A DNA stretch of 64,000 bases from contig DAIUCM010000002.1 in NCBI GenBank assembly GCA_036846145.1, positions 15,345 through 79,344 on the forward strand, read 5' to 3'. This stretch comes from Bacteroidota bacterium. GTDB lineage: Bacteria > Bacteroidota > Bacteroidia > CAILMK01. How positions within the stretch are numbered: position 1 is the stretch's first letter; each line of letters opens with the position of its first letter. The notes beneath the pieces are model-generated. The model was not told the DNA's origin. It worked only from the letters and a program-made list of their open reading frames with translations, and did no database searches. The position numbers and the translations under genes are program-made. This document shows positions 4,770 through 56,560 of this stretch, piece by piece.

Positions 4770-5198
4770 ATGTACCAGGGCATACTGCACGCACATTCTT
4801 ATCTTGCTTATTTAGTGCTGATAGGCTTGATCATTTCCATTATTAACGCCATTGCGAAAAGCAGCAAACCTTTTACCAATGCCGACCGCAAAATTTCCTT
4901 ACTGGGCCTCATTCCCGCGCACCTGCAATGGGTACTTGGTGTAATACTGTATTTTGTTTCACCGCTGGGCATACAAAGCGCTACCGAAGGTTTTATGAAA
5001 AACAGCAACCTGCGCCTGTACGTAATGGAACATCCGCTTACAATGGTTATTGCAGTTGTGCTGATTACCGTTGGCTATTCCCGCGCAAAAAGGATGATCG
5101 GCAGTGAGAAAGGCAATAAAAGCATTCTTATGTTTTACACTATTGGCCTTGTGCTTATTTTATTGCGAATCCCGTGGATCAGCTGGCCGGGCAACTAA
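4770..5198 (+). CDS. hypothetical integral membrane protein (about 4 TM helices)
   Basis: 142 aa, four hydrophobic segments; palindromic motif 35-70 nt upstream. Confidence 0.45.
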   Translation: MYQGILHAHSYLAYLVLIGLIISIINAIAKSSKPFTNADRKISLLGLIPAHLQWVLGVILYFVSPLGIQSATEGFMKNSNLRLYVMEHPLTMVIAVVLITVGYSRAKRMIGSEKGNKSILMFYTIGLVLILLRIPWISWPGN

Positions 5199-5494
5199 TT
5201 ATTGTTCAATATTATACAGCAGCTTTTAACAGCCCATTTGCATATAAGTATTCTCTTAAAAATGCTTTACACATTGGTTGTGAATAGGCAAGCTATTTGC
5301 AAACCAATGCAGTACGGGCAGTAAAAAGCGAACTGAATAATTATGGTTAAATAGCGCCAGATTTTATTATATCTTGATGTTCAGCTAAAGAAGTTAGTGT
5401 AAAGATCTAAGTAAGACACTTCCCTCAAACACTCGGCTGCAGCAGAGCGACTGTACAGGAGACTGTAACGAAAATGTTCTATTGATTCATTATT

Positions 5495-6550
5495 TCATTG
5501 CACAAACAGAAACTCGCCCGGAGAAACCCCAACCTGGAACTGGTGCTTAAACGCACCGCCGGATGTATAATGTAAAACGTAGCCTTGCTGCACATTATCA
5601 ACCGCATCGCTCACATAAATATCGTTGTTATTAGGATCTATGCCGAGGCCATAAAACTGCTTGCTGCCGGCCGTAATAAACGGTGTTTGCGGAAGAGCGT
5701 TATCAGTGACTGACATTCTGTAAACATCTTTATAGATGAAATATAATACATCGCCTTCAGCATTTATTTTAAGCTCGGAAACAGCTCTTGCTCTGCTCTC
5801 AAACTCAAAGGTTCTGATAATTCTTTTTGCATCGGGATCTATACAATACAGGTAGGAATTTTTACCGTTTACAGCGCCATCGCAAAGCACCCACAGTTTA
5901 TTGTTTTTATCCAGCTGCATCCATTGCGGCTCAGCTTTAACCATTAATACTTTGGTGATCGTATCTGTTCCTGCATCTATAACCAATATTTCCTGTTGCT
6001 TTGGCGCGCAGACGAATACCTCGCCTTTATGCATTATCATCTGCTCGGTCCAGTTATTCAGCAAAGTATCTTTATCCTGTTCATAACCTATCTTGCGCAA
6101 TACCTGGTAAGTTGATGGGTCTATTATCCATATTCCATTGGCATACAAATCGGTAACATAGGCTTTTGATGCATTCACCGGCAGGAAATACCGAGGCGAA
6201 TTAAGGCCTTCAATCAGCGCTTCGGACTTTAAGGTCTGGCTGTTGAGCACCTCAATTTTCTGCATATTGTTTACTACGGCAAAATACTTATCGTTATAAA
6301 GATACATGCTCTGGAAAACATCGCCGATGGGCCGGTTATTGATGCGCCGGAAAACATCATTCTCTACCTTCTGGCTATCAGGATTATACAAGCTCAGGCT
6401 GCCCGATGTTAGCGTAAAAGTGCCTTCGTTAATTACATAAACACCTTTGGAAACATCGCCTTTTGGCTGATCTAAATTTATCGGGTCATCATCCCTGCAC
6501 GTAGAAAAAGCAAAGCAGATAAGCAGTAAAAACGGAAAATATTTTTTCAT
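5495..6550 (-). CDS. YncE-like (YVTN/DUF5074-type) beta-propeller surface lipoprotein, translationally coupled to TonB-dependent receptor
   Basis: 351 aa; lipoprotein signal (LLLICFAFSTC); repeated Y-V-x-N/D-x-G blade motifs (VYVINEGTF, AYVTDLYANGIWIID, LWVLCDGAVNG, IYVSDAVDN); start overlaps TBDR stop by 4 nt (ATGA). Confidence 0.6.
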   Translation of the reverse strand: MKKYFPFLLLICFAFSTCRDDDPINLDQPKGDVSKGVYVINEGTFTLTSGSLSLYNPDSQKVENDVFRRINNRPIGDVFQSMYLYNDKYFAVVNNMQKIEVLNSQTLKSEALIEGLNSPRYFLPVNASKAYVTDLYANGIWIIDPSTYQVLRKIGYEQDKDTLLNNWTEQMIMHKGEVFVCAPKQQEILVIDAGTDTITKVLMVKAEPQWMQLDKNNKLWVLCDGAVNGKNSYLYCIDPDAKRIIRTFEFESRARAVSELKINAEGDVLYFIYKDVYRMSVTDNALPQTPFITAGSKQFYGLGIDPNNNDIYVSDAVDNVQQGYVLHYTSGGAFKHQFQVGVSPGEFLFVQ

Positions 6551-8457
6551 AATTTCTGAGTGAAATTTATAGCTGCGCCTAATTCAAACCATCGGCCCGG
6601 CATGGCGCGGAATTCTATGGCCTGGTAAGAAACATCTAACAGGTTATTGCATTTGGCAAAAGCGCGCAACGCAACATTTTTTAGAGTAAAGCCACTCTCC
6701 AGCTGCAAATTTACAATGCTGTAAGCGGGCAGAAAATAGGTTGGCGTATTTCGGCGCTGCGTGTATATATACTGCGCCGAAAAAATGCTTTTGCCGTAGC
6801 CTGCTGTTGCGCCCATTTGCGCTGTGTGAACAGGTACATAAATTAGCTGCCGGCCAACAGTTTTATCAAGTTCGCTCAAAGCGCGCTGGCTGGTGGAACG
6901 CACATAGCTGTATGCGCCGGAAACGTCTACTTTAAATCCGGCTACATCAACAGCTGTTTTTGATGAAATCTCTGTTCCGCGCGACCAAACTTTTTTAAGG
7001 TTTTGCGGCGTCCAGAATCCTCCCGAACCGGGCTGCCATTGTATGTAATTATCTACAGTTGTAGTAAAAAATGTCACCCCGTTCTGCCAGTTTATTTTTC
7101 CATTTTTTGATCGTAGCTGATTCTTACATCCGGCTTCTGCCGATAAGGCGTTTTCCGGCTGCAGGTTTGGATTTCCGCCCGGGTACCAGTATAAATCGTT
7201 CAATGTGGGATAGTTATAATTTCGTCCGATATTACTGTAAAAATCAAGCTTCTTATTTTTAATCACCTCGACATTTGCTGCTGCTGCGTACGATAGTACA
7301 TAGTTCTGGAAATTGAAAGTTTCAGGGCGCAATAAAAAGCTTAACTGTAAGCGCCTGATTCCGGCATACTGCAGGTTTACAGGAATACTTACCCGCTGCT
7401 GGCCTTTACGGTTGTATTTGGGCGATGTTGCCTCATCTGCAATAGCCTGTAAACCAGCATCTGCCTGCAGGCTCCTTAATTTTTTCCAGCGCAAATGCGG
7501 GTATATATAGTATCGCTGAAAAATGCTTCGGGAATGAATACCGGCAATTAAATTATCGTAATCCAGCTTTTCGCGGCTGTAACCTGCATCCAGAAAATAT
7601 TGCGTGTTTTCTGCATATTTACGGAGCTGGAAAGTTGCGCGTGCCGATGCATCATACTGCGTTTCGTTATTATTGGCGGTGATCAGCAGCGGAGGCAATT
7701 GCTTGTCCGCTTCCTGGTACCAGAAAGCCGCCGAAAACCATAACTTTTCCCTGATTTCACCATCCAGTGTTTGCACCCACCCGTATTGCCTGTACGCTGC
7801 ATTTTTTTGCCTTTCTTTTGGCAAACCTGGTTTCGTGGTATTGATAAATAAGAAATCGTTATCTGACTTTTGATGGTATATACGTGTGGAAGCCATTATT
7901 TTCTTCCCGTAACCGGCCCTGAATTGTGTTTGCCTTAAACCGAAACTACCGTAACTCTGCATCAGCTCGCCGCTCAGCTCATTTCTTTTTGATGAAACCG
8001 ATTGCATGGAAATATTACCGCCGAAACCGCCGCTTCCTTGCTGCAAACCTGCATTTCCGTATTGCAGTTCCACCGCATCTACCGCGAAAACCGGCACCAG
8101 GTTAAAATCCGCAACACCCAGCATGGGTGATGTTAAGGGCAGCCCGTTCCAATAGAGTTTTGTGTGCCCTGCCGCAGTACCGCGAAAACTGGGTAATGCC
8201 AACGCGCCCGGACCATAATTTTTAATAAAAACTGTTGAATTGCGGGTTAATAATTCTGCCAGCGAGTAATTTCGGTTGTTTGCCAGCACCAGCGAATCCA
8301 TTTCAACCATTTTCATACCCTGGAATGGTTTTGCTTTGCCGGTAATTTCTACTTCGGGCATTGTAAGCGAGTCGGGCGGTGTTTGGGAGAAAACTGCAGC
8401 AGGAAATATGCTCAACAAAAGCCATAGAACAACGCTGCAAATTTGTTTTCCTAGCAT
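6547..8457 (-). CDS. TonB-dependent receptor (plug + 22-strand barrel), small BtuB-like size
   Basis: 636 aa; signal peptide; plug-domain motifs (E.ITG....G....E..V.....R.YSLAELL, FIKNYGPGALALPSFRG, LYWNG.PL); size typical of BtuB/CirA class. Confidence 0.8.
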   Translation of the reverse strand: MLGKQICSVVLWLLLSIFPAAVFSQTPPDSLTMPEVEITGKAKPFQGMKMVEMDSLVLANNRNYSLAELLTRNSTVFIKNYGPGALALPSFRGTAAGHTKLYWNGLPLTSPMLGVADFNLVPVFAVDAVELQYGNAGLQQGSGGFGGNISMQSVSSKRNELSGELMQSYGSFGLRQTQFRAGYGKKIMASTRIYHQKSDNDFLFINTTKPGLPKERQKNAAYRQYGWVQTLDGEIREKLWFSAAFWYQEADKQLPPLLITANNNETQYDASARATFQLRKYAENTQYFLDAGYSREKLDYDNLIAGIHSRSIFQRYYIYPHLRWKKLRSLQADAGLQAIADEATSPKYNRKGQQRVSIPVNLQYAGIRRLQLSFLLRPETFNFQNYVLSYAAAANVEVIKNKKLDFYSNIGRNYNYPTLNDLYWYPGGNPNLQPENALSAEAGCKNQLRSKNGKINWQNGVTFFTTTVDNYIQWQPGSGGFWTPQNLKKVWSRGTEISSKTAVDVAGFKVDVSGAYSYVRSTSQRALSELDKTVGRQLIYVPVHTAQMGATAGYGKSIFSAQYIYTQRRNTPTYFLPAYSIVNLQLESGFTLKNVALRAFAKCNNLLDVSYQAIEFRAMPGRWFELGAAINFTQKL

Positions 8458-8466
8458 TTAAACGAT

Positions 8467-8862
8467 TTAATTTACAACCAGTTTTCGCTGTATTATTTCT
8501 TCATTCACAGCAACCATTTTCAGCATATATACACCTTTAGAAAAATGCTTTGAAGCGATATTTATACTGATATTTTTTTCGCCGTTTATTGCCTGATAAT
8601 AAATTTGTTGCCCATAGATATTATAAATTTCGAGCGCTTTATAAACTGTATTCACCAACTGCAATTGAATATTAACTGACCTGGAAATTTCTACCGGGTT
8701 CGGGAATATTTTTATACCTTGAAACTGAATATCATCATTCAATCCCAAAGCAACATTCCTCGTTTCGCCCATGGCATAACCATCGCCGTTTCCACCCAGG
8801 TACTGCGCTTTAGCTGAAGTAAAGCTCAGCAGGAATAATATTGCTATTACAAGATATTTCAT
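8467..8862 (-). CDS. small secreted protein consisting essentially of a T9SS type-A C-terminal sorting domain
   Basis: Signal peptide MKYLVIAILFLLSFTSAKAQ then ~110 aa ending IFPNPV..S..V.IQL......ALEIYNIYGQQIY......GEKNISI......KGVYMLKM (Por_Secre_tail pattern); first gene of the TBDR operon; ORF could start at 8901 (alt ATG). Confidence 0.55.
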   Translation of the reverse strand: MKYLVIAILFLLSFTSAKAQYLGGNGDGYAMGETRNVALGLNDDIQFQGIKIFPNPVEISRSVNIQLQLVNTVYKALEIYNIYGQQIYYQAINGEKNISINIASKHFSKGVYMLKMVAVNEEIIQRKLVVN

Positions 8863-8913
8863 ATCCATTAAAAAATTAAAAATGCAGTAAACCAATCTCA
8901 ATTATAAATTAAA

Positions 8914-9057
8914 AATTACGAATGCATCGTCGCGGTTTTCAGACGTTGCAATGCAACGTTTCTACAAAAGCCAACACCTATATTTTACATATATACCAGT
9001 TGCTAAAAATGCTTCAATACGTAAAATCCAAATCAGCGATTAACTGTCGCGACGCTG
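8914..9057. mobile_element. degenerate copy of MITE-like family 2 (AATTACGAATGCATCGTCGCGG ... CTGTCGCGACGCTG ends; AGACG..CGTCT hairpin; internal TATATA..AAAAATGC motif)
   Basis: Shares left-end block gcatcgtcgcgg and agacg-N-cgtct(c) hairpin with copies at 28068-28193 and 36761-36905; internal palindromic-motif half-site at 8989-9015. Confidence 0.45.
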
Positions 9058-9083
9058 AATTTTCAAATTTTCAGATCTGCATA

Positions 9084-10589
9084 TTATCTCCCTCCTCTCC
9101 CACCGCTGGTTCCGCGCCTTGTATCGGGTTTCTGGCCGGCATAAAACCTGTCGGAAATCGCCAGATCGCGGAATTCCGGTAAAATGCCGCTGTTCCAGCC
9201 GCCGCCACGAAATCCTGCACCATCGCCACTTGGATGAGGCCAGTTTTGTACATCTGCATCGCCGGTTTCTTCCAGTTCGCCATTACCCAATTTGCCATCA
9301 AACTGTAAGCCTTTTTCATTTACCGTTACACACATTTCCCAAAGGTTGCCGCTCATTTCCATAGCACCAAAATAGGCTGCGCCGGCTTCTACTCTGCCTG
9401 TAGCGCCGGCCGCAGCAAATCCTGGCCTTAATGCGCCTTGCGGACCGTTGTAACCATGGCTCGCCAATCCTGTGGTTGCATTTCCTTTCTCGGTTACGCC
9501 TTCATTTTCAGCGCCATCATTCTGTAATGTATTCGCATCAATAACTTTATCTGTTCCCCAGGCATATTCTTGCTTTACAGGCACTATTGGACCACGACAA
9601 ATTTTTTCGAACTCAAATTCCGTTAACGGTCGCAAAGCCGACCAATCGAGGTAAGCTGCAAGATCTGCCCAATGGAGGAAATTACACGCGCGGTTTTGGC
9701 CATCATCCTTCGCATCGAAAATATTATCGTTTTTGGAATTGCATGCATATACGGCTGGCCTGGAAGGGGCTTCACCTGGCTCTGAAATAATTATTCCGTT
9801 ACGGTTGGCAAGGAAGCTATTCATAGCGGGTGAGCCTTTAATACCTGCGGGCGATGTTGCGGTGCGCTTTTGCTGCTGCGAATAATTGAGGCAATTCAGG
9901 AAATCGGTGTATTGCTGTTGTGAAATTTCGTACTTCATACAATAAAAACCATTGTAGCCTTTCGGGTAATTTGCAGGAATATCAAGCGCTGGCGCAAATT
10001 TTCCGGTATCATTCAGCATAAAGGAATCTTTACCAACAGGTATTTCCTGGTTAGATGTTATATGGAAAGGTCTGTCGCTATCGCCACGGCGGAAACGGCT
10101 TTGGCTCGCTGCATCGCCAAGGTAAAAAGCGCCCTCATTCACCCAAACCATTTCTATCGCAAAAACCTTAAAATCGTAATTTCCTTTCGGCAGATAGTTT
10201 CCCCAGCTTAGCGTAACTTCTTCATTCTCAATATTTCCCTTGCCATAATTTGCCCGTTTCAGGAAAATGCCTTTTTCATCTGCTGTGGTTTCTACAGAGA
10301 GGTTTTGCGAGGTGAAATGCTCATTCGCATTGTTAGAAATGGTAAGATGTTTCCAGCTGCCATTGGAATTTGTTTCGCGGAATTTCACGAAAATCCAGAC
10401 CGCATCGTGATTATTCGGCGCTTCTGCAGCATCTGATTTCCAGGAATTTTCCCATGAAATAGTAAATTTTATCTGCCTGCTGCCCGTTACAGAAACCTGC
10501 GAAACCTGCACATTATTAGCTTCGGCCACTGAAAATACATTCAGCCACAGGAACACAAAAATGAGCAGGTTTTGCAAGTGTTTCTTCAT
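9084..10589 (-). CDS. formylglycine-generating-enzyme (SUMF1/EgtB/PvdO) family protein with N-terminal beta-sandwich region; secreted
   Basis: 501 aa; signal peptide; FGE-sulfatase signature residues GNLWEMC and FRGGGWNSG near C-terminus; same fold family as GldJ/GldK but no lipoprotein Cys. Confidence 0.65.
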   Translation of the reverse strand: MKKHLQNLLIFVFLWLNVFSVAEANNVQVSQVSVTGSRQIKFTISWENSWKSDAAEAPNNHDAVWIFVKFRETNSNGSWKHLTISNNANEHFTSQNLSVETTADEKGIFLKRANYGKGNIENEEVTLSWGNYLPKGNYDFKVFAIEMVWVNEGAFYLGDAASQSRFRRGDSDRPFHITSNQEIPVGKDSFMLNDTGKFAPALDIPANYPKGYNGFYCMKYEISQQQYTDFLNCLNYSQQQKRTATSPAGIKGSPAMNSFLANRNGIIISEPGEAPSRPAVYACNSKNDNIFDAKDDGQNRACNFLHWADLAAYLDWSALRPLTEFEFEKICRGPIVPVKQEYAWGTDKVIDANTLQNDGAENEGVTEKGNATTGLASHGYNGPQGALRPGFAAAGATGRVEAGAAYFGAMEMSGNLWEMCVTVNEKGLQFDGKLGNGELEETGDADVQNWPHPSGDGAGFRGGGWNSGILPEFRDLAISDRFYAGQKPDTRRGTSGGRGGR

Positions 10590-10626: not shown

Positions 10627-10677
10627 AAACCTGGGGCGTTGCCCCAAGCTGTGTTGTGTAACCCTTTCAGGGTTTGG
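10627..10677. repeat. REP-like palindromic element (GGGGCGTTGCCCC hairpin + GCTGTGTTGTGTAACCCTTTCAGGGTT hairpin)
   Basis: Sequence cctggggcgttgccccaagctgtgttgtgtaaccctttcagggtttgg; same two-hairpin module as REP units flanking the RAYT gene (29705-29838) and at 25531-25615. Confidence 0.6.
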
Positions 10678-10771
10678 TTAGCGTAATTCTTATTCCGGAG
10701 ATATATAAATAAATTACATATAAACCAGCACGAAATCATAGTTTATCTAAAAAATCATTATAATCAAAGTT

Positions 10772-12085
10772 CTATTGTTTAATGAATTTCTGCACGCCAT
10801 TTGCCTGGTCTGCCTTTACATTAATAATGTACAAACCTGCCGGTAAATGCTGTATATTAATTTGCGTAATTGGATTGTTTTCAACATTTTGCTGCATCAC
10901 AACTTTGCCGCTTATATCTGTAACAGTAATTATTGCATTGGTTAAATTCTCAGCCCCAATATACAAAGTATTTTTTGCCGGGTTTGGATATGCGTTCACC
11001 AATAAATTGCCTTTACTTGATGATTTCTGGATACCAACAGTTGAGCGGTAATCTACAGCAATGGCCTCGGGTGAAACACCTACAGCAAATGTATCAATCA
11101 TCTCGCCCATTGTATTAAAAATGTATGTTTCGCCGGTGCTTGCATAATTGGTAGCGCTTACGTAAAACAGGTTATTTAAAGTATCAATTGCTGCGCCGGA
11201 AATGAAATTACTGAAAGTGCTTATACCCGGTATTTTGTTATAATTTACCAGTAACTGCTGGCTGAAAGCATCGCCTTCAATATCGTAATAACCAATGCCG
11301 CTATAACCGAAATCCATAAATACTTTATTATCATCTAAGCCAACACCAAAGCCGCTCGGGTAAGAATTGTAACCGATTTTGTGCGTTAAAGCGCAGGTTG
11401 CAACATTGTAAGTTGTAATAACATTTCGCTTGCTGTTAACGGCATAAACGTTTGTGCCATCGGTAAAAATACGGCCAATCTGCGCGCCGAGCGTATCCAG
11501 CATTATTTCGCGTTTCAGCTGCATGTTAACCAGGTCAATTACAGCAATGGTTCCGGTATCTTTATTGTACGGGCCGGCAACCGCAACATACGCTGTATCG
11601 CCAACAACTACAATGCCTGCAGCCTGGTCCGAAATTCCTGTTATAGTAAAAGCCTCGGTGAGATCTGTGTTGTTATACACTTTTACAAAATCGCTGCCTG
11701 CGCCATAACCGCGCGTTGCAATTACATAATTTTTGTACGTGGCCAGGTACGAAAGCCCGGTTGTGGATTTTGGTGTAACAGCCATGCGTGTATGATTATC
11801 AATATCATACTTTACCAGCAAAGTATCGGCAGTTAAATAAGTGAATTTGCCATCGGTAATAACTGTTTTTGTAGAGGCTGCGCGTATTGAATCAAAAACG
11901 GTATAAACCTTGGTATTTGGATTATATGCGCCGATACGAACATAATTGTTTGGGTTGCCGAACTGGCCTCCGCTGGCAACTATAACCTGGTTTGTTTTGA
12001 AGCTTTGTGCCGTAGCTGTTGGAAATGGTAAAAGTAAAACAAGCGCAAATACCGCCTGTAAAAGTAATGTAGCAATACGATTCAT
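10772..12085 (-). CDS. T9SS type-A CTD secreted protein (beta-propeller-like body)
   Basis: 437 aa; signal peptide; C-terminus NAYPNPAKNTLYI......ITVTDISGKVVMQQNV......INIQHLPAGLYIINV = Por_Secre_tail. Confidence 0.65.
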   Translation of the reverse strand: MNRIATLLLQAVFALVLLLPFPTATAQSFKTNQVIVASGGQFGNPNNYVRIGAYNPNTKVYTVFDSIRAASTKTVITDGKFTYLTADTLLVKYDIDNHTRMAVTPKSTTGLSYLATYKNYVIATRGYGAGSDFVKVYNNTDLTEAFTITGISDQAAGIVVVGDTAYVAVAGPYNKDTGTIAVIDLVNMQLKREIMLDTLGAQIGRIFTDGTNVYAVNSKRNVITTYNVATCALTHKIGYNSYPSGFGVGLDDNKVFMDFGYSGIGYYDIEGDAFSQQLLVNYNKIPGISTFSNFISGAAIDTLNNLFYVSATNYASTGETYIFNTMGEMIDTFAVGVSPEAIAVDYRSTVGIQKSSSKGNLLVNAYPNPAKNTLYIGAENLTNAIITVTDISGKVVMQQNVENNPITQINIQHLPAGLYIINVKADQANGVQKFIKQ

Positions 12086-12513
12086 TATATTAATTTCAGT
12101 TTAAAAGCATTTTTTGTGCTATGGAGATATGGAAAACCGAAATAAGGAAACGCCGCTTTTGCTAATGAAAAAATATTGCCGGCACTGCCAAAATCTCGCT
12201 GCTCCACTCCCCGGAAGCATATGAAATAAAAAGTTTTAGCAAGGGCAGGTCTTCTGGCTTACCTCGTTTTCTTCGTGCCTTCCCATCCAATTTATACAGC
12301 GGACAGTGGCTAAGGGGTTGAAGAAAAATATGCTCTTTTTTAAGGAGCATGAAGGCTTACAGCAGCGGGGACTGCTCCGGATTTCCACCGGATTCCCATT
12401 TTAAGGCATACAGTTTTTATACAATATTGCCACCAATGCTGCTGCAAAGTTAAAGTATTTTTTGTATGTTTGATATATGGCTTCCGCCAAAAAGCCATTG
12501 CCAAACCAAAACT

Positions 12514-17195: not shown

Positions 17196-17431
17196 TGTTT
17201 AGGATTTTTTAAGGTTTTGAATGAAAACGCAAGTTTAGGTAATTGGTTGATTTGGTGAAATTATATGAAGCATTTTTTGCAGTTTGTATATATGAAAATA
17301 TTTATTTGAAGGTATTTCATAATAGTTTTACAGAAATGTTGTGCTTAACCAGCTAGTTTGGATGGACTGCCGCTATAGATTTAATGATAGCTAACGACAA
17401 AGCATTTTACTAAATTTTATACTCAGGGGAA

Positions 17432-22289: not shown

Positions 22290-22508
22290 GTAGAAACGAC
22301 GATTTATCGCGTCTCATTCTTGAGATGAAGCTGAGACGCGATAAATCGGCGTCTCTACAACACCAGAATGCCATTTACATATATACTTTGTCCAAAAAAT
22401 ACTTTCATAATTGAATCACGAAACCAGTGAAATCAAATTAATCATTATTAATCAGCGGTCTGACATGAAAACCGCGACGAAGCATTCGTAATTCGTAATT
22501 CGTAATTG
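22290..22508. mobile_element. degenerate MITE-like family-2 copy (27-bp hairpin GTAGAAACGACGATTTATCGCGTCTCA / TGAGACGCGATAAATCGGCGTCTCTAC; right end CCGCGACGAAGCATTCGTAATTCGTAATTCGTAATTG)
   Basis: Near-perfect 27-bp inverted repeat at 22290-22358; right-end block is reverse complement of the AATTACGAATGCATCGTCGCGG block at 8914; internal palindromic-motif half-site 22379-22406. Confidence 0.45.
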
Positions 22509-22510
22509 AA

Positions 22511-25342: not shown

Positions 25343-25530
25343 GCTGTTAATTATTCTTTATACTGAAGCATTTTTAGCCGTCTGCATATATGGATGCGCC
25401 GGAAAATGCTTCGTGATTTATTATTCTAAATATTCCCCTTCCAGGTAAAAATTATGGTTAACAAAAGGGTTTTTCAAAGGTATAAAAAATAGTTTCTATT
25501 CTTAGAGCATTGCCTTAAGCTGTAAAAGTC

Positions 25531-25615
25531 CCATGCCTTCAGCCTGTGTTGAAGCGGTAAAATACAAGAAGAGCCTTAAAGGCTCAGACACCAAAGCCTG
25601 GGGCAACGCCCTAGG
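25531..25615. repeat. REP-like cluster (GAGCCTTAAAGGCTC hairpin + CCTGGGGCAACGCCCTAGG hairpin, plus partial CAGGCTGAAGG...CATGGG module)
   Basis: Reverse-complement matches the module order of 10627-10677 and of the REP arms around the RAYT gene. Confidence 0.55.
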
Positions 25616-25667
25616 GAAAAATCAAAGCATTTTTCAGCAATACGCTATATGGAAAAGGCATAAAAAA

Positions 25668-28025: not shown

Positions 28026-28042
28026 TAAGGAATTAACAATTA

Positions 28043-28193
28043 CGAATTACGAATACATTAACGCGATGTAAAGACGACATGCCTGGCGTCTCGTTGCCGC
28101 GAAGATGTGAATTTCTATATATCAATTTACTAAAAAATGCTCTGAGCAAAATTTTCAATGTCGCGGATGAGACGCCAGGCATGTCGTCTCTAC
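28043..28193. mobile_element. MITE-like family-2 element, copy 1 (25-bp TIRs GTAAAGACGACATGCCTGGCGTCTC / GAGACGCCAGGCATGTCGTCTCTAC)
   Basis: Perfect 24/25 terminal inverted repeats at 28068-28092 and 28169-28193 enclosing ~75 bp that carries a palindromic-motif half-site (ctatatat..aaaaaatgctct); preceded by AATTACGAATTACGAATA block. Confidence 0.7.
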
Positions 28194-28312: not shown

Positions 28313-29698
28313 ATGTCAAGCCCTAAAACGCAATTCATACAGCAGTCCAATAAAAAGGCATTTGATGTTGAGCACCGCAAACGCATCAACTTCAACATAG
28401 CCAAATACAAAGCCAGCGTTTATACGGGAATGAACCAGTTTGCCGATGTTACTTTGGCGCGCGAAAGGGCAGCAGCAGCAAAACGAAAAGTGGTGGAAAA
28501 CCTGGATAAATACCTGATAGAGTGGGAGGCAAATTTCAAGAAGAACGGCGGAAAAGTAATTTGGGCGCAGGATGCCGCTGAAGCCAATAAAGAAATTTTA
28601 GCCATACTGAAAAAGCACAATGTAAAAAGCATTGTGAAAAGTAAAAGTATGGTTACCGAGGAAATAAAGCTCAACGAATTCCTCAAACAAAACAATATAG
28701 AGCCGATTGAAACCGATCTGGGCGAATATATTCAGCAGCTGGATGGCGAGCCGCCTTACCACATTGTAACGCCAGCCATGCACAAAAGCAAGGAAGATAT
28801 CGCCAAACTTTTCCATGAGAAACTAGGTACGCCATTAGATTTCACCCCGCAGGAATTAACCTTAAAAGCACGCGAAATTTTACGGCAAAAGTATGTAGAA
28901 GCCGGCGCCGGATTTACAGGTGCTAACTTTTTACTGGCTGATATCGGTGGCGTGCATATGCTCGAGAATGAAGGCAACGGCAGGCTGAGCGCCTCTTTCC
29001 CTAAAGTGCATATTGTGGTTACAGGTATTGAAAAAATTCTTCCTTCGGTTCACGATCTTTCGTTATTTCTGCCGATGCTCTCTACGTTTGGTACGGGACA
29101 GAAAATCTGCAATTACAACACCATATATACAGGTCCGAAAAAACGCTTTGAGATTGACGGCCCGGAAGAAATGTATGTTGTTTTGCTTGATAATGGTAGA
29201 AGTGATCTGTTGGCGCAAGTTCCTCAGCGAGAGGCTTTGGGTTGTATTCGTTGCGGCGCTTGCTTAAATGCGTGCCCGGTTTATAAAAATGTAGGCGGAC
29301 ATACTTACGGGAAAACTTATTCCGGGCCTATTGGCTCTGTAATAACGCCGTATTACAATGGTTTCAAGAACTATGTACACTTAAGCTATGCTTCTTCGCT
29401 ATGCGGAAATTGTACGGAAGTTTGCCCGGTAAATATAGATCTTCATAAATACTTATTATACAATCGCCAGAAAGCAGTAGAAAGTAATTACACCGGCAGA
29501 GCTGAAAAACTTACCTGGTTTATGTGGCGCAAAGGCATGCTGAACCGTAAAACCATGAATCGCGGAAACGCTACTTTGAAAAATATTATGTTCCGAACTG
29601 TTTTTAGTGGAAGCTGGGGGAAACACCGTGCGCCAATTAAGTTTTCAGGAAAAACATTTAATGAGGAGTGGAAAGAGAAGTTTATGCCGAAGTCCTAA
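28313..29698 (+). CDS. lutB: LutB/YkgF-type lactate-utilization iron-sulfur protein (LUD domain + 2x[4Fe-4S])
   Basis: 461 aa; CIRCGACLNACPVY and CGNCTEVCPV ferredoxin motifs; LUD/DUF162 N-terminal region. Confidence 0.8.
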   Translation: MSSPKTQFIQQSNKKAFDVEHRKRINFNIAKYKASVYTGMNQFADVTLARERAAAAKRKVVENLDKYLIEWEANFKKNGGKVIWAQDAAEANKEILAILKKHNVKSIVKSKSMVTEEIKLNEFLKQNNIEPIETDLGEYIQQLDGEPPYHIVTPAMHKSKEDIAKLFHEKLGTPLDFTPQELTLKAREILRQKYVEAGAGFTGANFLLADIGGVHMLENEGNGRLSASFPKVHIVVTGIEKILPSVHDLSLFLPMLSTFGTGQKICNYNTIYTGPKKRFEIDGPEEMYVVLLDNGRSDLLAQVPQREALGCIRCGACLNACPVYKNVGGHTYGKTYSGPIGSVITPYYNGFKNYVHLSYASSLCGNCTEVCPVNIDLHKYLLYNRQKAVESNYTGRAEKLTWFMWRKGMLNRKTMNRGNATLKNIMFRTVFSGSWGKHRAPIKFSGKTFNEEWKEKFMPKS

Positions 29699-29704
29699 TG
29701 AAAA

Positions 29705-30529
29705 AATCCTGACGCGTCGCATCAGGCTGTGTTGTTTGAGCCTTTCAGGCTCTGCGTGTTGCCGATCCTAAACAGGCTGAAGGCCTGAAACAACCCGGCA
29801 TGGGGCATCGCCCTATGAATTTCGCCCCATGGAAATCGTCTAATTATTTTCATATATCAATCATATGCAGTCATGTGATTGATACATCAATCATCTTCCC
29901 AAAAATATTTCGGATCATATTCTGCAACCTGATATTCTTTCATAAACAATGCAGTTTCTTCTTCAAAACTATGATGCTGATGATGCTCTTTTTGATTTTG
30001 GATATATTGAATTACAGATTGTAGTTTGGAAGCGCTTACCGAAAATGCGCCATATCCCTTCTGCCAGAAAAATGCTTCAACACCTTGTTCCTTCATCCAT
30101 TTCGACGATTGTTTTTTCAGTTCTTCTACAACCCTGGCCAACGTATAATTTTTCGACATTCGGAACAAAATATGCACATGATCCGGCATGGTGTTGATGG
30201 CCAATCCCATACACTGATATTGCTGCAACGTACCGGCCAGATAGCTATGCAACCTTTCTTCAATTTCCGGCAAAATCCATGGCTCCCTGTGCTTTGTGCC
30301 GAACATTAGATGAATGTATAGTTGCGATAAAGACTGAGACATTTGTGAGATGTTTATAGAAAGGGAATTTACAAAAATTGTATAAATCCTGGCGGTATTC
30401 ATTTGACAATTTCCATGGGGCGATGCCCCATGCTGGGTTGTTTCAGGCCTTCAGCATGTGATGCAGTGGTTATTACAAACAGAGCCTGAAGGGCTCAGAC
30501 AATACAGCCTGATGCATCGCATCAGGATT
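29705..30529. mobile_element. REPtron-like unit: RAYT gene flanked by ~125-bp inverted arrays of REP hairpins
   Basis: Left arm 29705-29838 and right arm 30407-30529 are reverse complements (aatcctgacgcgtcgcatcaggctgtgttgtttgagcctttcaggctctg...gctgaaggcctgaaacaacccggcatggggcatcgcc vs revcomp of right arm), each with >=2 hairpin modules. Confidence 0.75.
29887..30342 (-). CDS. REP-associated tyrosine transposase (RAYT; IS200/IS605 TnpA-like HUH Y1 enzyme)
   Basis: HUH motif DHVHILF; catalytic Tyr region SKLQSVIQYIQNQKEHH; N-terminus LYIHLMFGTKHR; ORF-track start 30402, probable start at MSQSLSQLYIH (30342). Confidence 0.8.
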   Translation of the reverse strand: MSQSLSQLYIHLMFGTKHREPWILPEIEERLHSYLAGTLQQYQCMGLAINTMPDHVHILFRMSKNYTLARVVEELKKQSSKWMKEQGVEAFFWQKGYGAFSVSASKLQSVIQYIQNQKEHHQHHSFEEETALFMKEYQVAEYDPKYFWEDD

Positions 30530-30615
30530 ATTTGGCTATTACGATGTTGTATAACAGTTAGTTACATTTCCATATATGCTTTGGCCAAAAAATGCCTTGA
30601 GTGGCGCAGAAAAAT

Positions 30616-31212
30616 TTACCCTCTCCTTCTCTCCAGCAAAATCATCATCATTAGGCTTAAAATAGCACGTTCTTCTTCATCTCCACTAAATTCCGCAAGT
30701 TTATTCACAGAGAATTTACGGCCGAAGAAGGAAGGTTCTTTTCTTAAGCGTGCAACGGCTTCACCGCTTTGCCTGGTAACAATGTACGATGGATTGAAAA
30801 GGTAACCGCTGAGCAATCCTACAATGGGAATTGATTCCAGCAACGCGTCGGCCACTTTTACCCAACCATTCTCTTCCTGTATAATCATATCCTGCGTTTG
30901 GTTGCGGTCGTAAATTTCATAGCGCGCTTTCCATAAGCTGGCCCAGCCTTTCCTTGCCACGCGGCCAATTTCCGTGCCTGCGTTATTCGTAAAGATATAG
31001 GCCGCCGAAAAATCTATCCACTTGTTTGCTTTAATTGTATAAAGCGTTTGAGATTTGGTTTCATTGTTATAAACCAATACTTCTTCTATAAATTTAAAAA
31101 GCTTCTGCTTAACAAAAAATACAGTTGAATTCGAAGCATCACTAATTACAAAATCATTGGAAAAAGTTGTGATCTTAAAGGTGAAATTCAGCGGGTATTT
31201 TAGTTGAGACAT
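30616..31212 (-). CDS. hypothetical protein (possible LURP-one-related/tubby-like DUF567 fold)
   Basis: 198 aa; no catalytic motif; composition and length consistent with DUF567. Confidence 0.35.
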   Translation of the reverse strand: MSQLKYPLNFTFKITTFSNDFVISDASNSTVFFVKQKLFKFIEEVLVYNNETKSQTLYTIKANKWIDFSAAYIFTNNAGTEIGRVARKGWASLWKARYEIYDRNQTQDMIIQEENGWVKVADALLESIPIVGLLSGYLFNPSYIVTRQSGEAVARLRKEPSFFGRKFSVNKLAEFSGDEEERAILSLMMMILLERRRG

Positions 31213-35250: not shown

Positions 35251-36714
35251 TCAAATACGCAATCCCACCAGCACTTTTTCAATCTTACTTTTAATTTCTG
35301 CGGAAGAACAGGTGTAATTATTCACGATCAGCGCAAAGGCATATTTTTTATCGGCAGATGTATAGCCGGCATAACTTCTTACCCTGTCCATGTGGCCGCT
35401 TTTGGCGCGTAATTTTCCCGAAATGGCAGTTCCATCGCCCATGTTACGCATAGCGCCGCTTTCTCCCGCAACCGGCAAAGAATTATAAAAACTGCTGAAA
35501 TAAGTTTCTTTCTTTACAGATGCCAGCACAGCAGTTAATTGATTGGCCGTTATGGCGTTGTAATGCGATAATCCACTGCCGTCATTCATAAAAAAACCTT
35601 TCGCATCTACACCTTTACTTTTCCAGAATTGCGTAATGGCTTTTGCACCCGCTTCGGTAGAACCTTCGTTAAAAACCTTGTAGCCGCATTCTTTCAATAA
35701 ATGTTCCGCGTACAGGTTGATGCTTTTAAGGTTTGTATGATAGACAATGTCCTTTAGCGGCGGCGAAACTGTTGTATGCAGCGCAGGGAATTCCGGCTTA
35801 AACGGGCTGTTATTACCTTGATTAAGCTGGAAACCACGGTTTTTAAGTTCGTTTATTAAGCTTTCCACGCAAAAAGCAACAGGATTTGGCATAGCGCCTT
35901 TGACCTTAAAGCCTTTGCTGCCGGCCGGGATTGTGCCGCGAATAACAAAATTAGGATTGTTCGGAGCGCCAAAAATATAAGCGTTATCTCCGGAATTTGC
36001 CGGCCCTGCCTTCAGCTCGCTTATCAGTGTAAATTGCGGCAGTTTCGGGTTGATGTCAACAATTTCCACTTCGCTGCCGACTGTTGCCGGTGCATTTAAT
36101 GTAACCACATACGTATTTTCATTGATGGTTAAAGCACTGGCGCCCGAACCATAATAATTACCGATATCGTTCCAGGCCCAATTGGCGGGTTGCATGGCAT
36201 TTTCGTAGCGGTTGGTAATAGCCGAAATACTGCCAATTTTTTTCTGCGGAAATTTCTGGGTAATGGCATCGGCCCAGGATTTTACCAGCGCATCCGAACC
36301 CGACGAGCCTTTTACCCTGTCTGAACCCAAAGTCGGGTCGCCTCCGCCAATGATGAAAATATTGTTGCTAACAGAATCGTAAACGAGTTGCGTTTTAAAA
36401 GTATAATCTTCGCCCAAAATACCCAAAGCGGCTGCAGTAGTTACAATTTTTAAGCTGGAAGCCGGAATAATCGACTGGTTAGCGTTGTGCTCAAAAATAG
36501 CTTTTCCGGTTTCTGTATCTACCAAAGCAAAACCCACAGAAGCGTGCGCAAGTGCCGGATCGTTTATGAAGGTTTTGAATATTTGCCTGAATTTTTCTAG
36601 TTTATCAGAATCTGCAGGTGGAGAAATGGACGAGAAACCAATAAAGCAAAAGAGCAAAATCAGGCTAAACAAAGCATTTTTTCGGGTTCGTATATATGGA
36701 GAAGTTTGATCCAA
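35251..36714 (-). CDS. dacB: D-alanyl-D-alanine carboxypeptidase/endopeptidase (PBP4 family)
   Basis: 487 aa; signal peptide; SxxK active site in IIPASSLKIVTTAAALGIL; PBP4 fold length; annotated first 14 codons overlap a palindromic-motif instance. Confidence 0.8.
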   Translation of the reverse strand: MDQTSPYIRTRKNALFSLILLFCFIGFSSISPPADSDKLEKFRQIFKTFINDPALAHASVGFALVDTETGKAIFEHNANQSIIPASSLKIVTTAAALGILGEDYTFKTQLVYDSVSNNIFIIGGGDPTLGSDRVKGSSGSDALVKSWADAITQKFPQKKIGSISAITNRYENAMQPANWAWNDIGNYYGSGASALTINENTYVVTLNAPATVGSEVEIVDINPKLPQFTLISELKAGPANSGDNAYIFGAPNNPNFVIRGTIPAGSKGFKVKGAMPNPVAFCVESLINELKNRGFQLNQGNNSPFKPEFPALHTTVSPPLKDIVYHTNLKSINLYAEHLLKECGYKVFNEGSTEAGAKAITQFWKSKGVDAKGFFMNDGSGLSHYNAITANQLTAVLASVKKETYFSSFYNSLPVAGESGAMRNMGDGTAISGKLRAKSGHMDRVRSYAGYTSADKKYAFALIVNNYTCSSAEIKSKIEKVLVGLRI

Positions 36715-38924: not shown

Positions 38925-39080
38925 TTAATTATAATAGCAAGTCCATATTGCGTAAAGCCGAAAAATGATTTTGCAAATTAATGGGATTAAAATTTATTTC
39001 ACTAAATAAAGTTAGATGTGCCATATTTTGAAAATATGGCACATCTGCGCTCTGAACCTAATATATTTACCAACCATTAA
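38925..39080. repeat. ~160-bp duplicated element copy 1, containing perfect 33-bp palindrome (38994-39026); candidate sRNA or MITE
   Basis: ~85% identical to 55975-56152; begins with palindromic-motif half-site (gtccatattgcg..gccgaaaaatgatttt); palindrome AGATGTGCCATATTTTGAAAATATGGCACATCT identical in both copies; ends with ccaacc..gttgg hairpin + T7 in this copy. Confidence 0.6.
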
Positions 39081-39117
39081 TGCATAAAATCTTCTGTTGG
39101 ATTTTTTTCGAGTCACG

Positions 39118-41322: not shown

Positions 41323-41655
41323 TACATATATGGGCACTAATAAAAACTCAATCTCTGCGTTGTGCTATCCAATTTAAAATCATCACTTACAAAGTAAACT
41401 CCGGTTTTAAATTTTCTGCGCGCCTTGATCTAAAGATTTTTAGAGGTGCCCATATATGTATATGCCGGAAAATGCTTTGGCCGGGCAATGAAAACTGCAC
41501 TTAGCAGTAATTACTTTTACCAATATAGAATGAAAAACGCATAAATAATACTGGTTTGTGAGCCATGAAACCAGGTTGTAATACTTCGAAGCTCCGTTGC
41601 CTGTAGCTCACAGCACAATTTTCAAATGCGCACAATTCATGCTATATTGATATTA

Positions 41656-51867: not shown

Positions 51868-52115
51868 AATATGAACATGTATAATCTCGGTTGCCGGGAT
51901 ACTGAAAGTGCGAAACCCAAAAGCATAAAAGTTTGCATAGCGTTTTTAGAAAATAATATATAGAAGAAAAATTAAGAGTAGCCATTAATGGGCGAAAAAA
52001 ACAGCCTGGCCTAAAGGCCAGGAAATAACAAAGCATTTTTACTTGCTTCCATATATGGAAACCACGGAAAATGCTTTACTTGATAATTGATAATTGATAA
52101 TTGAACATTGGGAAA

Positions 52116-55974: not shown

Positions 55975-56152
55975 TAATTTAATTATAACGAAAGTCCATA
56001 TAGCGTTAAGCCGAAAAATGCTTTTTCCAAATTAATAGGATTAAAGTTTATTTCTCCGAATAAAGTTAGATGTGCCATATTTTGAAAATATGGCACATCT
56101 GCGCTCTGAATCTAATATACTTACCAACTATTAATACATAAAACCCTCAGTT
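55975..56152. repeat. ~160-bp duplicated element copy 2 with identical 33-bp palindrome (56067-56099)
   Basis: Aligns to 38925-39080; starts with gtccatatagcg..gccgaaaaatgcttttt (palindromic-motif half-site); embedded in 1-kb ORF-free AT-rich region upstream of the hybrid kinase. Confidence 0.6.
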
Positions 56153-56560
56153 GGAATTCCCGGGTTCAGGCAATGATAAATACAGTATAACATGTCATGT
56201 AATAAGTATTGTGATGAATTCAGTTCAAATCAGGCGCACTGCTGAAACCATTGAAAGATACTGATTTACAGCAATCTGATAACATATTTTATTTGCACGC
56301 AATACATAATACTTTTGCCTCGAAACTTATAAATAATTACCTTAGCCGCCGCAACTGAATCAGCATTGTAAACAGCATTAATTTTAATTAGAATTTATAC
56401 AAGATTAGCATATTTATTACATTTGCGTTATGCAGAGATTATTTTAATGTTAAATTAATAGAATTAAGTTTAACTTGCATAAAATAAAATGTTTATTTAG
56501 CATTTCACCAAATGGGCTCTTTAAATAACTGGCTGTCCTTTTATTTAACAAACCGAATAA

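Follow-up and report, generated by a model that had tools for sequence, protein, structure and literature searches.

The enzymes closest to the one considered here were described by Quentin et al. (2018, BMC Genomics 19:475, PMC6006769) as subclass 1.2 of the TnpA_Y1 family. Members of this subclass carry the motifs DH[IV]H, WQ, and YIKNQKEHH (Y---Q--HH), have a median length of 148 aa, and end in a short, conserved C-terminal domain of ∼30 aa. They were found in Cyanobacteria and Bacteroidetes at 1.7 copies per genome, are present in <4% of species with one or two copies per genome, and show ∼36% identity between intragenomic copies. The same study placed subclass 1.2 near IS200 yet without the properties of an insertion sequence (IS), and its entry for repetitive extragenic palindromes (REPs) reads "REP: no." Here, we describe a subclass 1.2 gene that is bracketed by inverted copies of a 51-nt, two-hairpin unit. 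The gene lies within a 64,000-nt stretch of DNA (assembly GCA_036846145.1, contig DAIUCM010000002.1, positions 15,345 to 79,344, forward strand) from an uncultured Bacteroidia metagenome-assembled genome (MAG); this whole 64-kb stretch is referred to as the window. We consider it probable that gene and unit constitute a REPtron-like system that acts on single-stranded DNA and in which an IS200-like enzyme takes the place of a classical REP-associated tyrosine transposase (RAYT).

Classical REPtrons are organized around a RAYT (TnpA_REP class 2, e.g., E. coli YafM, PDB entry 4ER8) and its REPs, BIMEs, and REPINs. TnpA_REP of E. coli, S. maltophilia, and Marinomonas cleaves single-stranded REPs at a CT by the hairpin, and the AG of the GTAG foot is critical, acting as a guide. 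The S. maltophilia REP has a perfect 8-bp stem and a 3-nt loop, in which the first loop G is essential (PMC8266576). Among IS200/IS605 elements, the TnpAs of IS608 and ISDra2 bind subterminal hairpins on single-stranded DNA, with a guide tetranucleotide selecting the cleavage site. The two subterminal hairpins of such an element are formed by the same strand. Y1 genes have also been linked to inverted structures that are of a non-GTAG type, lie at a fixed distance, and are repeated in the genome. This applies to TnpA_Y1 class 3 and subclass 2.6, with their "atypical secondary structures" (Quentin 2018), and to the TIRtrons and their transposases, the TIRYTs (Di Nocera et al. 2013, PMC3733652); hosts of these systems include Acidobacteria, Planctomycetes, and Bacteroidetes. 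TIRYTs were assigned to subclasses 2.1, 2.2, and 2.5 (PMC6006769). Some of the TIRtrons of Di Nocera et al., which include an Acidobacteria group, have "double palindromic TIRs" (terminal inverted repeats). Bertels et al. (2017) reported a RAYT-like "IS200 Group 3" that lacks duplicates, is absent from plasmids, and is flanked by abundant 16-mers. That group may be the same clade as subclass 1.2, an equivalence that is conjectural. For the repeat unit itself, the nearest Rfam family is Acido-Lenti-1 (RF01687), which Weinberg et al. (2010, Genome Biol 11:R31, PMC2864571) judged on covariation to be a probable trans-acting RNA of Acidobacteria and Lentisphaerae; on its context they remarked only that group II introns are sometimes close by. 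A 2026 preprint notes that little is known of Acido-Lenti-1 and speculates that it regulates virulence proteases.

The first-pass annotation of the window proposed a RAYT gene bracketed by inverted REP arrays, with cognate REPs elsewhere. The open reading frame (ORF) on which it was based is present as claimed, with an HUH motif (DHVHILF) and a catalytic tyrosine (in QYIQNQ). It encodes 151 aa on the - strand (29887-30342) and is the sole substantial ORF in 29500-30750. A 171-aa reading from an upstream ATG is unsupported, as orthologs start at the MSQSLSQLYIH methionine. The gene is flanked by a lutB-like gene (28313-29698, +) and a LOR-family gene (30616-31212, -). It occurs once within the window, and no tnpB was found near it in the window or at orthologous loci. 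The two flanks are mutual reverse complements, as had been noted. One pair of arms joins 29772-29838 with 30393-30459 (67 nt, 81%) and a second joins 29701-29759 with 30475-30533 (59 nt, 85%); column identity of the aligned arms is 86%.

Each flank had been read as two different hairpin modules. It is instead an inverted pair of a single 51-nt unit, giving the order L1(+), L2(-), gene, R1(+), R2(-), and what appeared to be a ccatgg-rich tail is hairpin 1 of the oppositely oriented copy (CATGGGGCGATGCCCCATG). The unit comprises 2 flanking bases, hairpin 1 (8-bp stem and 3-nt loop), a 12-nt CT-led linker, hairpin 2 (5-bp stem and TTC loop), and 5 flanking bases. In the gene-proximal units, hairpin 1 faces the gene at ∼50 to 70 nt from each ORF end, and the distal units are arranged tail to tail with the proximal units across gaps of 12 to 15 nt. 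The dispersed copies, said to have a different first hairpin, carry the canonical one, GGGGCGWTGCCCC, which is also found in both gene-proximal units. It is the distal units that are variant (CCTGAYGC...GCATCAGG), with two compensatory pair changes relative to CCTGGGGC...GCCCCAGG that keep the 8-bp stem and 3-nt loop. The features are as follows, with bit scores from a covariance model of the unit:

29887-30342, - strand: Y1 (HUH) tyrosine recombinase/transposase gene, TnpA_Y1 subclass 1.2 (DHVH at residues 54-57, WQ at 93-94, Y113-IQNQKEHH, conserved C-terminal tail).
29706-29756, + strand: unit L1, distal, on the 3' side of the gene (53.8 bits; variant hairpin 1 CCTGACGC-GTC-GCATCAGG, linker CTGTGTTGTTTG, hairpin 2 AGCCT-TTC-AGGCT).
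29769-29819, - strand: unit L2, gene proximal, hairpin 1 CATAGGGC-GAT-GCCCCATG toward the gene (55.7 bits; tail to tail with L1, 12-nt gap).
29809-29836, no strand assigned: imperfect 14-nt tandem repeat, CGCCCTATGAATTT (29809-29822) followed by CGCCCCATGGAAAT (29823-29836) (10/14 identical; duplicates the inner half of hairpin 1).
30412-30462, + strand: unit R1, gene proximal, hairpin 1 CATGGGGC-GAT-GCCCCATG toward the 5' end of the gene (56.4 bits; hairpin 2 partly degraded).
30478-30528, - strand: unit R2, distal, variant hairpin 1 CCTGATGC-GAT-GCATCAGG (55.3 bits; tail to tail with R1, 15-nt gap).
10628-10678, + strand: dispersed single unit (62.0 bits; intergenic, between - strand ORFs 9084-10589 and 10772-12085).
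25567-25617, - strand: dispersed unit (56.2 bits; intergenic, between a polA-like ORF and a beta-barrel ORF; positional ortholog of the doublet at locus L002 of a related genome).
25499-25550, + strand: decayed partner of the 25567-25617 unit in a tail-to-tail doublet (7.4 bits, E value of 3.4; intact in L002).

With the covariance model run over the whole window with filters off, exactly six units scored 54 to 62 bits and everything else scored ≤9 bits. The six units were part of the training alignment, which inflates their scores, although the score gap is still clear. All six are intergenic, as the first-pass annotation had stated for its copies, and L1 begins 8 nt past the stop codon of the lutB-like gene. 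Of the related repeats it had placed at 10627-10677 and 25531-25615, the former is the unit at 10628-10678, while the latter resolves into an intact unit (25567-25617) plus its decayed partner. The left-arm duplication likewise exists, not as the exact 12-bp copy proposed (ctatgaatttcg) but as the imperfect 14-nt tandem repeat listed above. The copies had also been described as positioned like terminators. Terminator-like sites are indeed enriched at the locus (5 found versus 1.3 ± 1.1 expected), but all five fall within the two distal units; hairpin 1 of L1, for instance, is followed by ATTTTTT on the - strand. The outermost hairpins with their T-runs probably have a second role as terminators and would thereby insulate the gene, a role that fits with a REPtron-like system. 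The label of a canonical REP does not suit these repeats, which are bipartite and have no GT[AG]G foot. No tetranucleotide is conserved on the 5' side of hairpin 1; positions -1 and -2 there are simply A/T rich. The complementary-strand foot at hairpin 1 reads nYAG, of which only the AG is common to GT[AG]G.

The family assignment of the enzyme also departs from the RAYT label. Pfam PF01797 (Y1_Tnp) matches the ORF at 99.4 bits (cutoff of 23) over profile positions 2-121 of 121. The ORF passes the NCBIfam IS200 equivalog model (NF033573; 71.2 bits versus a cutoff of 55) and fails the RAYT model REP_Tyr_transpos (NF047646; 36.9 bits versus a cutoff of 80). The IS200 model therefore scores better (71.2 versus 36.9), with no tnpB remnant to accompany it. 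The tyrosine motif, YIQNQ, has the class 1 signature Y---Q, not the Y---NP of RAYTs; further motifs are DHVH, FWQKGYG, and YIQNQKEHHQHH, and a conserved C-terminal tail of ∼30 residues follows the pattern F..E...F..Y....YD..Y.W. By its motifs, length, and C-terminal domain, the protein is a member of TnpA_Y1 subclass 1.2. Residues H55, H57, Y113, Q117, H120, and H121 are invariant in 57 homologs and in 11 sequences spanning at least 5 phyla. Most homolog clusters of the window protein were seen on 1 to 3 contigs.

A sequence search of the PDB retrieved only IS200/IS605-type TnpAs (2fyx, 2f4f, ISDra2, and IS608; E values of 1e-6 to 1e-4). An AlphaFold2 model built from the 57 homologs (pLDDT, 87; pTM, 0.79) has the TnpA fold, and its top Foldseek matches are the ISDra2 and IS608 TnpAs (E value of ∼1e-9, 20 to 26% identity). 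The E. coli RAYT 4ER8 ranks below these (E value of 1e-5, 14% identity). The monomer model does superpose on 4ER8 at a root mean square deviation of 2.6 Å (versus 5 to 10 Å for IS608/ISDra2 chains), which we did not take as evidence of RAYT-like monomeric action. The low value probably arises because the model folds the tyrosine helix back in cis, whereas the crystallized IS transposases are domain-swapped dimers. Judged from its intact motifs, the window enzyme is probably catalytically competent, a putative Y1/HUH endonuclease-ligase of single-stranded DNA.

To describe the unit beyond the window, we scanned a collection of 185,579 species genomes (596 Gb) with a degenerate pattern derived from the window units (GGGCGWTGCCCC-N13-18-CYTTCAG). 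At least 120 stretches matched, against an estimated ∼100 chance matches over the whole collection. The matches are nonetheless not attributable to chance. An 18-nt gap is present in 124/147 of the pattern matches listed, where chance would spread evenly over the six gap lengths, and almost all listed matches complete both stems beyond the specified bases, with compensatory variation. Hosts among the matches listed include Acidobacteriota, Planctomycetota, Verrucomicrobiota, Bacteroidota, Chloroflexota, Desulfobacterota, Sumerlaeota, Calditrichota, Hydrogenedentes, "Ca. Parabeggiatoa," and Thiomargarita. Genomes with matches include those of Saccharicrinis (OY762448.1), Acidobacteriota (OY969111.1 and CBDDBI010000008.1), Prolixibacter, Terriglobus albidus, and Marinilabilia salmonicolor. 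The repeats are thus not unique to this locus, as copies occur both elsewhere in the window and in other genomes.

The unit is a structured element under selection for pairing, and both of its hairpins covary strongly. In an alignment of 101 sequences, 92.8% of cells are paired versus 76.7% in shuffles, and 212 cells carry double changes versus 69 in shuffles, with 0/500 shuffles as high. Slid registers of the pairing all collapse. Pairs free of the search pattern show all four Watson-Crick types (e.g., column pair 5-19: UA, 36; CG, 35; GC, 13; AU, 10), and the remaining pairs covary as well in 40 units that were not pattern selected. G.U pairs are rare (5/1313 cells). A CT lies directly 3' of hairpin 1 in 144/162 units, and the loop of hairpin 1 begins with G in 33/40 of the pattern-independent units. 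An apparent asymmetry of the folding strand (A.C made up most unpaired cells of the first alignment, equivalent to G.T wobbles on the opposite strand) was mostly an artifact of pattern-fixed positions and was dropped. In "Ca. Parabeggiatoa" MAG QNER01000071.1 (locus L007), 7 to 8 units form a direct tandem array with a 50-nt period (355-701), each of which exceeds the Rfam threshold for Acido-Lenti-1. The contig also has a match to a group II intron domain (6825-6901), which echoes the remark of Weinberg et al. on such introns.

Gene and unit are associated reciprocally, with a constant geometry, and in many phyla. Orthologs of the window protein at 61 to 71% identity (loci L001 and L002 and Natronoflexus locus L004) are bracketed by the unit with hairpin 1 facing inward. 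When loci were sampled by the unit (up to 8 kb), 10/120 among the matches listed encoded a homolog of the window protein immediately next to the unit. Because <4% of species have subclass 1.2, with one or two copies in each genome, the chance expectation is far below one such locus among 120. All intact unit-adjacent homologs carry the YIxxQxxHH signature; their hosts are Sumerlaeota, Planctomycetota, a deltaproteobacterial MAG, Acidobacteriota, and Bacteroidota. Sampling by the protein (80 metagenome loci, 40 to 62% identity to the window protein) gave the converse result, as a unit lies within 300 nt of the gene in 62/80 loci. In this set, the proximal upstream unit is on the - strand in 42/47 cases and the proximal downstream unit on the + strand in 36/48, with median gaps to the gene of 54 nt upstream and 50 nt downstream, and 131/146 detected units fall in the gene-near 21% of the sequence. 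The REPtron-like architecture recognized in the first-pass annotation (a Y1 gene, inverted hairpin repeats, and dispersed cognates) is therefore family-wide.

Gene-less REPIN-like doublets with inward-facing geometry are also common. We counted pairs of adjacent units ≤1.2 kb apart in the unit-sampled loci listed and in the window, L001, L002, and L004. Of 34 head-to-head pairs, 6 enclose a Y1 gene, 26 are gene-less with a spacer of 60 to 400 nt, and 2 have gene-sized gaps. Tail-to-tail pairs numbered 10, and the doublets of the window's own lineage are of this kind. The two gene-sized gaps (∼610 to 630 nt) occur in Terriglobus albidus (L038, 5660-6287) and in a Balneolaceae MAG (L053, 4211-4823); a tblastn search found no convincing Y1 remnant in either. 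The L038 gap holds an unrelated 146-aa ORF, and replacement of cargo inside the hairpin bracket is possible. In Natronoflexus pectinivorans (L004), the subclass 1.2 gene with its units (5001-5456) lies directly upstream of a gene for a 1468-aa Cas9 (5916-10322; domains Cas9-BH, HNH_4, and RuvC_III), an adjacency that is probably coincidental.

Set against the systems introduced above, the window resembles published subclass 1.2 in its motif set, length (148 to 151 aa), short C-terminal domain, Bacteroidetes host, and lack of tnpB, and it holds one copy of the gene in 64 kb. It differs in that the gene is bracketed by the two-hairpin unit, as are most of the protein-sampled loci. This disagreement on REPs concerns the published description of the subclass, not family membership. 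Members with the subclass 1.2 signature also stand beside the unit in Acidobacteriota, Planctomycetota, Sumerlaeota, and the deltaproteobacterial MAG. Classical REPtrons share with the window a Y1 gene (probably of low copy number here), inverted flanking hairpin repeats, and dispersed singles and inverted doublets, and hairpin 1 is similar to the group 3 REP of S. maltophilia (PMC8266576) in its perfect 8-bp stem, G-first 3-nt loop, and adjacent CT. Their enzymes are unlike that of the window, as judged by the tyrosine motif, the RAYT model, and the low identity to 4ER8; the window unit, in turn, lacks the 5' GT[AG]G foot, is bipartite with an obligatory hairpin 2, and is conserved across phyla instead of being species specific. 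IS200/IS605 TnpAs (subclass 1.1; IS200, IS608, and ISDra2) provide the best sequence and structure matches and agree in fold, HUH motif, Y---Q motif, size, and the presence of hairpins near both gene ends, as expected for recognition elements. Unlike these elements, the window has inverted units, no tnpB, a syntenic gene present once in 64 kb, extra HH and C-terminal tail motifs, and many gene-less units. Class 3 enzymes differ from the window protein in their NHVH and YV..EQ motifs and their CnGA foot, subclass 2.6 has Y---NP, and the TIRYT TIR consensus GGGGWSAS does not fit GGGGCGWTGCCCC. The window system could nevertheless overlap partially with the TIRtrons that have double palindromic TIRs.

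The unit is, by sequence and layout, a diverged relative of Rfam Acido-Lenti-1. The RF01687 model reported R1 (30414-30458) at 18.7 bits (E value of 0.19; threshold of 37) and did not report the other three units in the scanned locus (29400-30800). Relatives found with the window pattern in Terriglobus, other Acidobacteriota, and "Ca. Parabeggiatoa" pass the RF01687 gathering threshold (37 to 46 bits). Both elements have an 8-bp hairpin, a CUA/CUG-led linker with a central UAU, and a short second hairpin, ∼46 nt in all. In contrast, RF01687 is typed as an sRNA (small RNA) gene ("Gene; sRNA") of a function unknown to Rfam, from Acidobacteria and Lentisphaerae (with seed sequences from Koribacter versatilis and Lentisphaera araneosa, among others) and with no link to a transposase, whereas our unit behaves like a DNA repeat tied to a Y1 gene and is found in many more phyla. 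A full-text literature search found no paper linking Acido-Lenti-1 to a transposase. We see about an even chance that Acido-Lenti-1 is not an RNA gene but the single-stranded DNA substrate of subclass 1.2 Y1 enzymes. Together, the two would form a third, independently organized REP-type system, bipartite, free of a GTAG foot, and served by an IS200-like enzyme, with the hairpin GGGGCGWTGCCCC almost unchanged across at least 10 phyla and a gene cassette that may be exchangeable between hairpin-marked sites.

Comparison with L002 bears on the age of the system. L002 shares the gene order tatC-rpiB-lutB next to the Y1 gene, with the LOR gene on the far side; the LutB proteins are 95% identical and the LOR proteins 76% identical. 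A dispersed doublet between the beta-barrel gene and polA is also orthologous (78% alignable), with one unit decayed in the window. Given this synteny and the orthologous doublet, the sequences indicate that the gene locus and the dispersed doublet both predate the split between the window and L002 lineages and were inherited vertically. Divergence of the Y1 gene was compared among the loci at 29887-30342 of the window, 5001-5459 of L002, and 5001-5453 of L001. The high Y1 divergence at the syntenic site could result from rapid evolution or from swapping of gene cassettes among hairpin-marked sites; such an exchange would explain a 66%-identical Y1 beside a neighbor gene at 95%. Across 93 sampled Y1 genes, the median pairwise nucleotide identity is 69%, and none of the 93 is near identical to another in a demonstrably different context. 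For the sole near-identical pair testable on both flanks (L152/L162), the flanks match too, which identifies the same locus in related strains. The flanks of other close pairs are short, partly matching, or unmatched. The sampled sequences thus give no clear sign of recent gene transposition. Taken with the one gene copy in 64 kb, the synteny with L002, and the lack of tnpB, this behavior resembles that of a domesticated gene.

By analogy with the IS608/ISDra2 TnpAs and with TnpA_REP of E. coli, S. maltophilia, and Marinomonas, the subclass 1.2 enzyme would bind hairpin 1 in single-stranded DNA, such as that exposed at replication forks. Cleavage through Y113 would fall at or near the conserved CT beside the hairpin 1 stem (AG in the 5' foot of the complementary strand) and would leave the enzyme in a 5'-phosphotyrosine link. 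In this way, the enzyme would copy, move, or maintain units in trans, and the gene itself would stay a low-copy resident that no longer multiplies.

Several observations weigh against such a REPtron-like system. Binding, cleavage site, and active strand are carried over to subclass 1.2 by analogy, and a test of the folding strand on the 40 pattern-independent units was not significant (A.C, 12, versus G.T, 5). The dispersed sites that could be compared are old, and nothing seen in this lineage shows mobility directly. Classical REPs typically number in the hundreds, and a family of which 64 kb holds two dispersed sites may be small by that standard. No unit was detected in 18/80 protein-sampled loci, where units may be diverged or absent. 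Simple vertical descent does not explain why the syntenic Y1 of L002 is only 66% identical to that of the window when its neighbors are at 95% and 76%. A nonsyntenic paralog from the same sample is 71% identical to the window Y1 and 65% identical to the L002 Y1, so that the L002 Y1 is no closer. Finally, the protein passes the IS200 equivalog model. This last point also favors an explanation that we regard as unlikely, namely an autonomous, low-activity IS200-type IS with tnpA only, in which inward units are the ends, gene-less head-to-head doublets are internal-deletion derivatives akin to miniature inverted-repeat transposable elements, and single units are decayed remnants. Consistent with this, the enzyme has the Y---Q motif, and its nearest relatives in sequence and fold are IS200/IS605 TnpAs. 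The near-constant distance of ∼50 nt between unit and ORF on both sides suggests fixed ends, and the 26 gene-less doublets share the inward-facing geometry. Hairpin 1 is nearly the same in many phyla while the distribution is patchy, which suggests that gene and ends were transferred horizontally as one, and the window Y1 does not resemble the syntenic L002 copy more than the nonsyntenic one. The unit ends are mutually inverted, however, unlike the same-strand hairpins of IS200/IS605, and simple deletion would not yield tail-to-tail doublets or single units. The gene is also present once in the window, the related genome is occupied at the same position, and no near-identical gene in another context was found among the 93. 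Quentin et al. (PMC6006769) similarly report for subclass 1.2 a low copy number, ∼36% intragenomic identity, and that it "does not share IS properties."

Less probable still is that the units act mainly as RNA (an sRNA, transcript-end stabilizer, terminator, or insulator), with a regulatory bracket that limits read-through or expression and is not a substrate. Relatives of the unit do pass the threshold of an Rfam family typed as an sRNA, whose original authors judged it a likely RNA on covariation (PMC2864571). Every window copy is situated downstream of some gene, the locus has an excess of terminator-like sites, and REPs are known to affect mRNA stability and termination. Yet the units occur in both orientations and are mostly paired in inverted fashion, a pattern not expected of a strand-specific RNA, and G.U pairs are scarce. 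The Y1 gene is the only consistent gene association of the unit, and the symmetric inward bracket is the same whichever way the gene runs. The tandem arrays of L007, with their 50-nt period, do not suit an RNA role either; hairpin 2 and the conserved CT linker would be superfluous for a terminator, and most units have no T-run. An RNA function nevertheless retains far more plausibility than the idea that the gene is a decaying relic among unrelated intergenic palindromes accumulated by chance, to which we give almost no credence. This genome does have several other repeat families in its intergenic regions, but these do not flank the gene. The ORF is intact, its catalytic residues are invariant, and its structural model is confident; the same unit stands in the same geometry beside homologs at 62/80 independent loci. 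Covariation and the protein-sampled association effectively refute the chance-palindrome explanation.

Other repeats of the window were also recorded; those in intergenic regions do not flank the Y1 gene. A second, unrelated family of hairpins, TGTAGAGACGACATGCCTGGCGTCTC, combines a 6-bp stem with a GTAG/GTAA foot and forms inverted REPIN-like doublets with 55- to 75-nt spacers (28067-28107/28163-28201 and 36746-36795/36871-36920). It resembles canonical GTAG-tagged REPs and is presumably served by a class 2 RAYT elsewhere in the genome. Because this family does not flank the Y1 gene, it supports the specificity of the gene-unit pairing. The window also holds a very frequent intergenic motif in either orientation, AAAGCATTTTT-N11-13-(T/C)ATATATGG (68 matches to a loose pattern, 46 of them outside long ORFs), for example at 301-337, 12104-12140, 17267-17303, 25366-25411, 25624-25660, 30552-30598, 36671-36707, 41432-41477, and 52030-52076. 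One copy lies between the right repeat arm and the LOR gene and others lie in spacers of the GTAG-type doublets; the motif is conserved beside the orthologous doublet of L002. A role as a promoter or terminator signal specific to this lineage is possible, although its position relative to ORF starts is not clearly promoter-like. A 136-nt direct repeat (38969-39104 and 56023-56158, 90% identity) contains a perfect 33-nt palindrome, AGATGTGCCATATTTTGAAAATATGGCACATCT, and may be an operator-like site duplicated with its context. A 44-nt inverted repeat (8898-8941 and 22466-22509, 89% complementarity) contains short CGTAATT/ATTACGA repeats plus TGAAAACCGCGACGA, and a related string, ATTACGAATTACGAA, lies at 28040-28055 beside a GTAG-type doublet. 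Three tandem copies of a 474-nt coding repeat at 2179-3522 (65 to 80% identity) are consistent with a repeated-domain surface protein.

If the proposed system is correct, an orphan Rfam family that genome pipelines annotate as an sRNA would acquire both a role and a partner protein. Our covariance model already detects Bacteroidota copies that the Rfam model misses. With an enzyme of 151 aa and a 51-nt substrate whose hairpin is almost invariant across phyla, the system would be convenient for study; possible uses would include work on how HUH enzymes choose hairpins and cleavage sites and tools for sequence-specific conjugation of protein to single-stranded DNA. It would also correct the published picture of subclass 1.2 as a group without cognate repeats. 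The "REP: no" entry likely arose because the REP search was keyed on GT[AG]G-footed hairpins (PMC6006769). For the family as a whole, subclass 1.2 would fill a gap between mobile IS200 elements and domesticated RAYTs and would bear on whether domestication occurred once or repeatedly.

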